Notes under the pieces: generated by a model
Databases searched by the model: none
What the model saw: the letters and a program-made list of their open reading frames with translations, nothing else
Told to the model about the DNA's origin: nothing
Part shown: positions 13,843-60,738 of the stretch, one piece after another
Layout: the number at the start of each line of letters is the position of its first letter
How positions within the stretch are numbered: position 1 is the stretch's first letter
NCBI GenBank assembly: GCA_964016885.1
Contig: OZ024746.1
Coordinates: forward strand, 30,132,001-30,196,000
From: Eledone cirrhosa
Taxonomy: Eukaryota
DNA length: 64,000 nucleotides
Direction: 5' to 3'
Program-made: the position numbers and the translations under genes

Positions 13843-14048
13843 CCATAATATTAATTATAATTATAATAAGAAACCTAGCATAAACTCTAAAACTAACAGA
13901 AGAAATAGAACTAGAAACATAATCTGGTATGCTCTCCATTTTCACTAAGTATTAAAACACCTTTAGCTAAACTATTTTTAAAGCTCTTGAAAAATGTTTT
14001 CCCAAGGCCCATAGATATTATTCAATTAAACTATCTTACTCTACTACT

Positions 14049-14555
14049 ATGAACCTAGCACATAATATAAATAGTATCAATAATAGAAATCTAAACCTTA
14101 ACCAGAATACCACTAATACCTCTAGCAATATCCAATATAATAAATGTAATTGTAGAATTAAATCTAACTGTCCTTTAAAAAATAACTGTTTAGTTAAAAA
14201 TGTGGTCTATAAATGCAATGTCAAAACGAATGATAATATTTTTAACTATGTTGGCTCAACTTCTACAGACTTTAAATCTCGTTTCAATAACCATAAATGC
14301 TCGTTTAATAATATTGGTAAAAAATCTTCAACTTCTCTATTCAACTTGATATGGAACTTAAAATCCAAAAATAGAGACTATTCTTTATCTTGGAATATAA
14401 TCGCAGTAGCACCTGCTTACGATAACACAGCTTTATCCAAATTTTGCAATTTGTGTGTTAAAGAAATTTTCTTCATACTTAAATGTAAGAACTCCATTAA
14501 TTTACGTAACAATTTATTTAGCTCTTGTAAACATCGCCAAAACTCAACTTTTTGA
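14049..14555 (+). pseudogene. GIY-YIG endonuclease domain of a Penelope-like element (C-terminal remnant)
   Basis: CNCRIKSNCPLKNNC linker, VVY...YVGST..FKSRFNNHKCSF, CNLCVKE, SCKH. Upstream ORF is disrupted and RT is absent. Confidence 0.9.
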
Positions 14556-20389: not shown

Positions 20390-20451
20390 TTTCATTATAC
20401 ATATTCCAGGGATACCATATTAAAAATATGGCATACCTTCTTCAGATAAAA
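20390..20451 (-). ncRNA. Hammerhead-like motif of the PLE 3' repeat family (GAAA changed to GGAA)
   Basis: ttttat CTGAAGA aggtatgccatatt..aatatggtatccct GGAA tatgta TA atgaaa. Confidence 0.5.
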
Positions 20452-45434: not shown

Positions 45435-45536
45435 GTCCTTCATCAGTGATCTTCCAACTTTCATTGGTATTTCATCGCTTTAAAAATCATATACCTCTAG
45501 TTGGCGCGAGCAATAACAAATAAAGTTATTGGGACA
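45435..45536 (-). ncRNA. Permuted K-turn hammerhead-like motif (version 1)
   Basis: Minus strand: gtcc..tcgc g ccaact aGA ggtaT A tgatttt taaa gcga T GAAA tacc aatGAa agttgg aagatca CTGATGA A ggac. Confidence 0.7.
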
Positions 45537-46260: not shown

Positions 46261-46371
46261 TGTCCCAACGACTTTTTTTAGCCGTTGCTCGCACCAACCG
46301 GAGGTATATGGTCTTTAAAGCGATGAAATACCAATGATGGTTGGAAGATCACTGATGAAGGACTAACTTTA
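46261..46371 (+). ncRNA. Permuted K-turn hammerhead-like motif (version 1b)
   Basis: gtcc..tcgc a ccaacc gGA ggtaT A tggtctt taaa gcga T GAAA tacc aatGAt ggttgg aagatca CTGATGA A ggac. Confidence 0.72.
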
Positions 46372-52206: not shown

Positions 52207-52214
<8 letters not shown>

Positions 52215-52645
52215 TTCACATATTTATATTTTTTCCTCAGCTGCGATTGTCTGTTTCTTTCTTACTCTCTCTCCTCTTTTTACCCTCTCTGCCAGTCACA
52301 CTCTCTCTCTCTGCTGGTCTCTTCCTCACACTTCCACTCACTCACTCTCTTCTTGTCGGATGGTCTGTATCTCTCGCCCATGAATTCACCAAGCTTAAGC
52401 TTACAGATTTCATGTGCTTGTCTCTTCCTATCTTTCCGTTGCCATACCATCGTTGTTTATTTACATGTCTCGCTCGTTTCACCCTATTTTACTTGTCCCA
52501 ATAACTTTATTTGTTATTGCCCGCACCAACTAGAGGTATATGATTTTTAAAGCGATGAAATACCAATGAAAGTTGGAAGATCACTGATGAAGAACTAATT
52601 TTATTCATATGTAACCCATGTGCAACCACGCAGCGCTCCATTTTT

Positions 52646-54300: not shown

Positions 54301-55338
54301 TTCTCAGAAGCTTTTGTCAATAACATTTTCAGTATTGAGAAATACACAGGTATGATAACTATTTATTATCGGTCGATAAAATAAAGTACCAGTAATGTAC
54401 TGGGATAAGTGCTGGCCTTGTGCCAAAAAGTAGAAACAATTATCATAGGCATTGGCCCAAATAGTATCGCGTATTTTCTGTCCTAAATTCAATGGGATGT
54501 AATTGACATGTTGGAGATACCAGATATCTAACTAAACTAAAAGTATGATCGTTCTTCACTTTGAAACATGACTTGTTGTTTCGGTTCGCGATCGTAAGGT
54601 TCGTGCTTTTGATTATCAACGCTGCATTGCGTCCTTGAGTAAGACACTTTATTTCGCGTTCATTCAGTTCATACAACTGGATAAAAACGAGTTCTACCTG
54701 TAATTCAAAGGGCTAACCCTACCATTCACATTTGAATCTGTGAATCCCGCAGAGAAATAACTTTAATGAACACCTGTCTAATTAATGCTCTGCTACTTAC
54801 ACGTGAATTTCGAAAGCAATCATCGTACACCTACTTACCTACTTGCAACAAAATTTCTGGTCGGATGTCCCAAACAATCGATACATTCAACATAGCTAAT
54901 TATTGCATTTCCGTCTAGTGGCAAATAAAAGATTTATTGAAACAGGTAATACTACTAAGCTAATTATATAACAACAAATACTCAACATTTACATCAGTAA
55001 CGAATTCAGAGACGGAGATACGATGCTAATTAAGTTTGAAAACACAACTCATTAAGCAAAGTTGATTAAAAATATATAAAGCGAAAGATGTACTAATTAC
55101 ACGCCTTAGTGGATATTTGAGTGGAGTACTTAAATACTGAATTAGTTGCTTAAATGTAACTCATAATTTCATGCATTACTGGATAATAAATTATTCATAA
55201 ACCCGGCATATTCAAACAAATTCATGTAGAGTTGTGTGTGTGCATGTATGTACATATATGTACACACACACACACATATATATATATATGTGTATATATA
55301 TATATATATATACACACACACATATATATATATATATA

Positions 55339-55995
55339 TATGAAAATATGGCTGAGAAGAATACTGCTGGTTGCACATGGATAACATGTTATAAAATGAG
55401 TCCCTCATCAGTGATTTACCAAACGATCATGGGTATTTCATCGCATTAAAAATCATATACCTCACGTTGGAGCGATAATAACTAAAATAAGTTATTAGGA
55501 CAATAGAAACGCGTAAAGCGAGTGAGACAAGTAAACAACACAGGGGGAAGCTAACCGAAGATGGAAATAAACACAAGCAACATAGTTATTCTTTCAGCAT
55601 AAGCTGTGTGAATATATGAGCGAGTCAGAAAATAGACCTTTCGCTAGTGAATCCGGTGTTAGAAAGAAAGAAAACCGTTTTCTCAGCGAACGGGAGGAAG
55701 AAAGAAGGGGAGAAACAGGGACTGAGTGAGTGGGAGTGCGAGGAAGAGGTCAGTAGAGAGAAAGAGTTAACTGACATGGCAGAGGGGACGAAAGAAAGTA
55801 AGAGAAACAGAGAGAACGAGGGAGCAGTAAGAGAGAAAGAGAGAAACACAGAATTGAAGTTTGGGTAAATATATGAAAATATGGGTGAGAAGAATACTGC
55901 TGGTTGCACATGGATAACATGTTATAAAATGAGTCCCTCATCAGTGATTTACCAAACGATCATGGGTATTTCATCGCATTAAAAATCATATACCT
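55339..55995 (-). mobile_element. 533-bp monomer plus ~125-bp terminal redundancy, permuted-HHR element (version 2)
   Basis: 55341-55462 is repeated at 55874-55995. Non-coding, with (TA)n on both sides. Confidence 0.82.
55399..55502 (-). ncRNA. Permuted K-turn hammerhead-like motif (version 2), partial second copy at 55932-55995
   Basis: gtcc..atcgc t ccaacg tGA ggtaT A tgattt ttaat gcga T GAAA tacc catGAt cgtttgg t aaatca CTGATGA G ggac. Confidence 0.7.
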
Positions 55996-56107
55996 ATATA
56001 TATACATATATATATATATATTTAACGAAGGAAGTGTGGTAAGGTACCAGGTGGACCATAACGCACCAGAGTACTCGATACTTTGGGTAGTAGAGTGGGT
56101 AATAGGA

Positions 56108-56363: not shown

Positions 56364-56425
56364 TTTCATAATACATATTTGAAGGGCCACCAAAGTAAAC
56401 TATGGTGCGCTTTCATCAGATAAAA
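56364..56425 (-). ncRNA. Hammerhead-like motif of the PLE 3' repeat family (GAAA changed to CAAA), with an inverted partial copy at ~56465-56537
   Basis: ttttat CTGATGA aagcgcacc..ggtggccctt CAAA tatgta TT atgaaa. Confidence 0.5.
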
Positions 56426-60634: not shown

Positions 60635-60738
60635 TGTCCTCATCAGTAGTCTGCTGATTATCGTTGGTATTTCGACGCATTAAAGACTAGATACCTAAAA
60701 TCAGTGCGAGCGAATAACTCAATTAAGTTATTGGGACA
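60635..60738 (-). ncRNA. Permuted hammerhead-like motif (version 3, AUC site, G-C at 10.1-11.1)
   Basis: tgtc..tcgc a ctgatt tTA ggtaT C tagtct ttaat gcgt C GAAA tacc aacGAt aatcag c agacta CTGATGA G gaca. Confidence 0.72.

Follow-up and report, generated by a model that had tools for sequence, protein, structure and literature searches.

A kink-turn as the probable hinge of a type-SGC hammerhead ribozyme in a short repeat of Eledone cirrhosa

The window analysed here, 64,000 nt of the Eledone cirrhosa genome (GCA_964016885.1, contig OZ024746.1, positions 30,132,001 to 30,196,000, forward strand), contains several copies of a short repeat that bears the blocks of a hammerhead ribozyme in permuted order, and whose stem III runs on into what looks like an RNA kink-turn (K-turn). 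The question raised by the copy near 52.5 kb is whether this motif is a genuine K-turn and what such a bend would do in a ribozyme of that order. Our reading, which we hold to be probable, is that a short non-autonomous retroelement, probably related to the Naiad elements, carries a type-SGC hammerhead at its 3′ end, and that a real kink-turn serves this ribozyme as a hinge.

At 52526-52576 (+) lies a standard kink-turn made of a 5-bp C helix, an AAU bulge, tandem G.A/A.G pairs and a 6-bp NC helix, and it extends stem III of a type-SGC (non-circularly permuted) hammerhead. In the numbering scheme given in passages of PMC8191799, it reads C-G at -1, G1b.A1n, A2b.G2n and A.A at 3b.3n. The block order of the ribozyme, with the cleavage site followed by GAAA and then CUGAUGA, is that of type SGC, and the core bases are conserved. 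The parts of this copy are as follows.

52207-52640 (approximate), + strand: short non-coding repeat with the ribozyme near its 3′ end, then a (TA)n run
52495-52524, + strand: upstream strand, with the outer helix 5′ side (52495-52498), a 7-bp hairpin (52499-52519) and the stem II-like 5′ side (52521-52524)
52526-52531, + strand: K-turn NC helix 5′ strand, pairs with 52571-52576
52532-52534, + strand: K-turn non-bulged strand AGA (3n = A, G2n, A1n)
52535-52539, + strand: stem III 5′ strand, which is the K-turn C helix and ends in U16.1, pairs with 52560-52564
52540, + strand: H17, with cleavage predicted 3′ of this base
52541-52546, + strand: stem I 5′ strand, pairs with 52578-52583
52547-52551, + strand: linker from stem I to the stem II-like helix
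52552-52556, + strand: stem II-like helix 3′ strand (52552-52555, with 52521-52524) and position 11.1 (with 52591)
52557-52564, + strand: core GAA and stem III 3′ strand (A15.1 onward; -1b = C)
52565-52567, + strand: K-turn bulge L1-L3, AAU
52568-52570, + strand: K-turn bulged strand GAA (G1b, A2b, 3b = A)
52571-52577, + strand: NC helix 3′ strand (52571-52576) and a 1-nt link to stem I
52578-52590, + strand: stem I 3′ strand and the CUGAUGA core
52591-52595, + strand: position 10.1 and the closing strand of the outer helix, which pairs with 52495-52498

The sister copies in the window are these.

45454-45504, - strand: K-turn span, copy with A.A at 3b.3n
46294-46344, + strand: K-turn span, copy with U.G at 3b.3n
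55420-55470, - strand: K-turn span, copy of a very young subfamily, U.U at 3b.3n
55953-56003, - strand: tandem partner of the 55.4 kb copy, 533 nt away, truncated, with the 5′ K-turn strand lost
55300-56000, - strand: window members of the young subfamily (others at loci L061-L090)
60654-60704, - strand: K-turn span, non-standard copy (2n = U, L3 = C)

The initial annotation of the window had described K-turn elements in stem III at five of these places (45.4, 46.3, 52.5, 55.4 and 60.6 kb), and all five read as it stated. The NC helix of the 55.4 kb copy has one additional base, and the 2n = U and L3 = C of the 60.6 kb copy are typical of its whole subfamily.

A search pattern blind to the K-turn, fixing only the core and four stem III pairs, gave 8,231 exact matches in the 3.0-Gb genome and 0 when reversed. 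The helices were scored in an alignment of the 52.5 kb copy with 84 of the first 100 matches, leaving out one with a broken NC register, eight duplicates and seven truncated or deleted upstream. Over seven helices, 95.0% of cells pair, against 88.7% in shuffles (0/500) that ignore relatedness, and pairing drops to 26-44% when the strands are slid. The covarying helix of about 6 bp that had been proposed beyond the GA steps is borne out, since the NC helix shows both-side changes at 5/6 pairs (95.3% of cells paired); stem I shows them at 3/6 pairs (96.9% paired). Covariation support is weaker for the stem II-like helix, which is 95.0% paired, with rare double changes at two pairs in only three cells. 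The outermost pair of the outer helix is G-C in 62 and A-U in 17. Outside its K-turn, the 52.5 kb copy is mismatched at two places, 52521 and 52593, and may therefore be impaired. Among the first 100 matches, H17 is A in 60/100, C in 40/100 and G in 0/100. The linker at 52547-52551 holds an AA that is invariant in 85/85 aligned copies though the pattern left it free, possibly for a tertiary contact.

The permuted order had been recognised in the initial annotation, and it is indeed SGC, but the splitting of stem II into a junction with an upstream strand was overlooked. A single pair links the two core blocks directly, between the nucleotide that follows CUGAUGA and the one that precedes GAAA (10.1-11.1; 82.4% paired, with A-U, G.U, U-A and G-C seen); the remaining stem II strands pair with an upstream segment whose two arms flank a 7-bp hairpin, so that a four-way junction results, and the NC helix converges with stem I and the stem II-like helix in a three-way junction. 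Stem II is not formed by the strand directly after CUGAnGA, unlike the type-SGC rule, so that the element works like SGC but is a variant of it, and its split stem II breaks the three-block rule assumed for hammerhead permutations. An Rfam scan of the window at gathering thresholds gave 0 matches. ViennaRNA cannot fold the pseudoknotted whole, and its energies were used only for the stem III and NC hairpin, which folds with a z of -2.59 (3/200 shuffles as good); in the model without pseudoknots the whole domain has z-scores of only -1.0 to -1.33, and a different fold is obtained for the copies at 55.4 and 60.6 kb.

Conservation of the two GA steps across genomic copies was one of the points on which the initial annotation staked its K-turn, and both steps stand in exact register in 6,976 of the 8,231 matches of the blind pattern, as counted with a second pattern that also fixes the spacing (reversed-pattern control 0). 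In a metagenome control with the same blind pattern, drawn from 80 listed loci of at least 119, both GA steps occur in 0/78 unrelated matches with upstream sequence, and the 80 listed loci included no relatives. A chance match recurring in metagenome contigs (L209, L223-L226, L243, L245, L246 and others) is a repeated element with an ordinary-order hammerhead-like core. Among the first 100 genomic matches, G1b is kept in 98, A2b in 99, G2n in 94 and A1n in 95, and all four in 87; the 13 failures of this four-base test comprise four copies of the 2n = U subfamily, two upstream deletions and seven single changes. L2 is A in 100/100 and L3 is U in 94/100, with C-G at -1b:-1n in 87/99 copies.

Because repeat copies are not independent, the weight rests on a tree test and on distant families. 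In a tree of 92 of the first 100 copies (the eight truncated or deleted ones dropped), internal branches carry no change at G1b, A2b or L2 and a single one at each of G2n, A1n and L3; the lone A1n change falls where two copies with unlike bases are joined, and probably arises from the parsimony method itself. Changes number 4 at 3b, 5 at 3n and 5 at L1, and 56 flanking columns average 2.05-2.56. The four GA columns differ from the flanks, which may themselves not be neutral, at P = 0.018, and the same four together with L2 and L3 at P = 0.003, which makes the tree test moderate evidence for constraint on the K-turn.

At 3b.3n, the 100 copies have U.U (47), U.G (26), A.A (15), A.G (7) or other combinations (5). 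Watson-Crick pairs, which block ion-induced K-turn folding according to passages of PMC4382518, are found there in 0/100 copies, where about 24 would be expected under independence, though the copies are related. The only shared change in the GA steps is that of G2n to U. Passages of PMC2790904 and PMC5061560 report 2n = U in natural K-turns, among them Kt-23, which requires G at 3n for folding. The 2n = U subfamily of the 60.6 kb copy has U at 3n, whereas Kt-23 requires G, and so may fold poorly alone; an impaired K-turn can be folded by tertiary contacts alone (PMC5061560, in part).

In regards to the carrier, the tandem unit is about 494-534 nt long in the three window families searched, and among the first 100 matches 11 tandem neighbour pairs have a same-strand spacing of 502-976 nt and 6 neighbour pairs are inverted; many copies are solitary rather than tandem. 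A TA run lies within 200 nt downstream of 90/100 matches, against 22% of random positions. A (TA)n bias with partial tandem and inverted copies is among the insertion features of Penelope-like elements (PLEs) in passages of PMC8557442; the same features are found here, and they hold for other PLE clades besides Naiad. The element is about 500 nt long and without an ORF, the Naiad-type ORF with N-terminal GIY-YIG and RT being absent. The carrier is probably a short, non-autonomous, Naiad-related retroelement. The very young subfamily at 55.4 kb has at least 40 copies that are 100% identical over 181 nt, often in partial tandems of 533-534 nt, and is the best candidate for an active element.

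No convincing copy was seen in twenty 10-kb stretches of the genome (5 adjoining the window, 15 at round coordinates), no Naiad-like ORF was found in about 3 kb upstream of two copies of family C (see below), and the loci examined in this genome yielded no autonomous partner. A Penelope-like ORF beside three copies was rejected as the proven driver, since it comes with a terminal repeat of its own and the 10-kb stretches contain it as well. Its element (L197:1406-4984, L198, L199), which we take to be a Penelope-like RT-endonuclease, is separated from the three SGC copies by TA runs, and the proximity probably reflects a shared target preference. Elsewhere in the window, a 194-aa frame at 13971-14555 (+) presumably resembles the endonuclease end of a Penelope-type GIY-YIG protein; it has many relatives in the loci examined, and a Pfam search with it gave no significant match. 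Three other CUGAnGA sites of the window, at 908-914, 20439-20445 and 56413-56419 (all -), share an AT-rich upstream stem and a downstream hairpin, and are possibly another hammerhead-bearing repeat family.

Naiads were reported to be without canonical hammerheads, some being marked HHR_core or HHR_half_core (passages of PMC8557442). In the parts of its consensus file (File S5) that show CUGAUGA, the SGC order was recognised by eye at 8/19 such places, in Naiad_Obim, Naiad_Ovul, one ctenophore, three Acropora and two other records; the two octopus names are inferred from the order of the records and the next header. By eye, the 3′ ends of Naiad_Obim and Naiad_Ovul in that supplement have the same block order and helices as the element here, although stems I and III, the NC helix and the stem II-like helix each have a different sequence there, and they keep the 3-nt bulge (AAU, AGU), GA/GA and U.U, with U-A at -1. 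These octopus elements are the closest K-turn-bearing relatives seen. Where the octopus records have their K-turn, the six others show a branch, an 8-nt bulge, a small loop or, in one case, a nearly straight stem III extension of 10 bp, a 1-nt bulge and 5 bp, followed by a 2-nt link. These sequences suggest that some Naiads reported without hammerheads carry permuted ones, which may explain part of the HHR_core and HHR_half_core labels and of the claim that canonical hammerheads are missing.

A search pattern modelled on stem III of the Naiads matched 38 old copies in the Eledone genome (control 0), which fall into three old SGC families, C, D and E (loci L389-L426). Family C (18 copies, one to three of them doubtfully assigned) has other helices and keeps G1b in 13/18, A2b in 17/18, A1n in 14/18 and a purine at L2 in 17/18; it mostly has 2n = U with C at both 3b and 3n, a non-standard K-turn, and its L3 is mixed (U 6, G 6, A 5, C 1). 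In families D (12 copies) and E (8), the 50 nt examined contain no NC helix, and a single-stranded linker of about 10 nt takes its place. A further distant family, B, has a GUC triplet (loci L321, L328, L332, L333, L349-L383; 50 rows, 5 of them not family B) and keeps the same cage, but where the K-turn would be it has a large asymmetric loop of 5-7 nt by 1-3 nt; some 9 nt separate its CUGA from stem III, and it is better read as Watson-Crick paired. Stem III differs in sequence yet stays paired in families B and C. The K-turn identity of the motif appears well supported at the level of sequence, because it is conserved against covarying neighbours, avoids Watson-Crick pairs at 3b.3n, and is kept in Naiads with other helices.

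Hammerheads fold with stem II stacked on stem III and stem I placed alongside stem II (PMC10085705, in part). Stem III would point away from stems I and II, and the strand leaving it would have to enter the far end of stem I 1 nt past the NC helix. The K-turn would turn the stem III arm back and close a ring of core, stem III, K-turn, NC helix and stem I, which could keep stems I and II together, a task normally done by a loop-loop contact; ring closure and Mg2+ would most likely stabilise the kink. Cleavage would trim the RNA of the element or cut tandem units into monomers of about 500-630 nt. In a stick model with assumed dimensions and a generous reach, closure is 0 at 120 degrees or more, 0.02 at 100 and 0.50 at 50 degrees, the angle given by k-turns in passages of PMC8191799, and on this model a monomer would need a bend of about 100 degrees or sharper. 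Since the families substitute a large loop, a single-stranded linker or a non-standard K-turn at this place (B, D and E are without a standard K-turn), the conserved thing is the hinge, and several solutions at the same place fit a required one. The proposal that the kink folds stem III back so that CUGAUGA can reach stem I thus gains from the stick model and the other hinges, but not as a universal rule: the nearly straight Naiad record, which would close as a monomer only with its outer helix melted or else work as a dimer, argues against that.

The K-turn could instead be an obligatory site for the host protein 15.5K/Snu13, which would kink stem III to speed the ribozyme or clamp the ends of the cleaved monomer as in box C/D RNA, a reading that we judge unlikely. 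Boxes C and D sit near the 5′ and 3′ ends of their RNAs, and in a doubly cleaved monomer the K-turn strands would also lie near the 5′ and 3′ ends, which is offered as a lead only. The constancy of L2 and L3 noted above, with the lower P value when both are counted, speaks for the protein, given that L3 points into its pocket and that the bulged strand C-AAU-GA is identical to U4 C28-A33 (passages of PMC2952850). So do the frequent U.U and A.A, pairs that fold partly or poorly in Mg2+ (Kt-7 EFRET 0.41 and 0.24, against 0.51-0.56 for 3n = G; passages of PMC4382518), the joint presence of RUGAUG and CUGA in 21/99, the octopus Naiads with L2 A or G, L3 U and U.U, and the slowness of published SGC ribozymes, for which the authors allow a helper protein (PMC10085705, in part). 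Against it, 3n = G, which folds in Mg2+ alone, is present in 33/100; Watson-Crick 3b.3n, typical of the protein-dependent U4 (PMC4382518, in part), is absent; the 60.6 kb subfamily and family C are without G2n, an L7Ae contact in passages of PMC5061560; family C has no fixed base at L3; three families (B, D, E) have spread without a K-turn; and published SGC RNAs cleave without protein (PMC10085705, in part). From these sequences, some binding of 15.5K/Snu13 in vivo seems likely, and the dependence of the ribozyme on it, which the initial annotation had raised, is plausible on mixed evidence. The protein would probably be able to bind many subfamilies, may aid folding or protect cleaved ends, and would not be required by all subfamilies. 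A wider version, in which Naiads and their short derivatives carry a split-stem-II SGC hammerhead and the U4-like K-turn here recruits 15.5K/Snu13, gating cleavage or clamping the cut ends for protection or ligation, is doubtful; if true, it would be a natural protein-gated hammerhead linking retrotransposition to a snoRNP/spliceosome protein.

The active form might also be a strand-swapped dimer, one molecule giving S and C and another G, with the K-turn only orienting the partner. The frequency of tandem copies (the 11 neighbour pairs above), the better performance of amphibian retrozyme hammerheads as dimers (PMC7229834) and the nearly straight Naiad record would fit this; the spacing between blocks, however, is almost fixed at 17 and 20 nt in 91/100, the families without an NC helix use a linker of about 10 nt as a monomer ring would need, and many copies stand alone, so we consider a dimer rather improbable. 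We give least credit to the K-turn likeness being incidental, with an ordinary asymmetric internal loop or a GA kept for other pairing or a DNA-level signal. Variation could not be seen at the four helical positions of stem III that the pattern fixed, alternative partners are possible for three-base stretches of the bulged strand in as many as 92% of rows, and other families manage without a K-turn; but no alternative partner for L2-L3-1b-2b exceeds 54% of rows, and the bulge length, GA registers, L2 purine and non-Watson-Crick 3b.3n are kept both in the octopus Naiads and, with 2n = U, in family C.

With the K-turn as hinge, there is a concrete proposal for the three-dimensional closure of non-circularly permuted hammerheads, which passages of PMC10085705 leave partly open: a conserved sharp-bend motif probably allows the knotted RNA to close up and may provide a host protein with a grip on it. 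The results also put type-SGC ribozymes in the genome of an animal, in over 8,000 copies, and suggest that at least some Naiads carry permuted hammerheads missed by standard descriptors. The element contains a natural series of K-turn variants (U.U, U.G, A.G, A.A, 2n = U) in one ribozyme, which with a cleavage read-out would allow a direct test of published folding rules and protein dependence.

Within the open-access PMC and bioRxiv literature, as far as its passages go, we found no natural hammerhead with a K-turn, and the sole report of type-SGC ribozymes found was that of Eckert et al. 2023 (PMC10085705). The text of that paper as available has no "kink", "k-turn" or "L7Ae", and its supplement text no "kink" or "k-turn"; "kink" and "k-turn" are also absent from PMC3088659 and from the main text of bioRxiv 10.64898/2026.07.22.740005, and passages of PMC11702757 name no K-turn hammerhead. 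The Eckert ribozymes, which came from a screen around hairpin-ribozyme metatranscriptome contigs and from RefSeq and metagenome searches, share with the element the S-G-C order, an intact core and a short linker between stems I and II, whereas here stem II is split and the host is a high-copy genomic repeat. Naiad PLEs (Craig et al. 2021, PMC8557442), whose permuted hammerhead fold is not described in the passages of that paper, share the (TA)n insertion bias and the partial tandem and inverted copies, and the octopus Naiad 3′ ends share the helix set, the K-turn and a hairpin loop resembling the one in several subfamilies; unlike Naiads, the element is only about 500 nt long and has no ORF. 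Animal non-LTR retrozymes (PMC7229834; bioRxiv 10.64898/2026.07.22.740005) likewise have short non-coding tandem units with a hammerhead and a Penelope-like tie, but their hammerhead is type I and their units measure 150-450 bp, as opposed to type SGC and units of about 500-630 bp, mostly single or two-copy, in the present case. The engineered HHV-Kt ribozyme (PMC9521606, in part), a hammerhead variant, binds L7Ae through a K-turn while remaining able to cleave; that K-turn was added artificially as an affinity tag, on a stem that is not essential, and has no part in the architecture. An assignment to the box C/D k-turns was rejected on the last base of box C (5b = G in 91/99), and the 52.5 kb copy does not have a box C RUGAUGA opposite a box D CUGA. 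The C helix, the 3-nt bulge, G1b.A1n, A2b.G2n and C-G at -1 are shared with standard K-turns (U4 5′ stem-loop, box C/D, Kt-7, SAM-I); unlike in these, the C helix here is the stem III of a ribozyme, five pairs from the predicted cleavage site, and 3b.3n varies between subfamilies (U.U, U.G, A.G, A.A).
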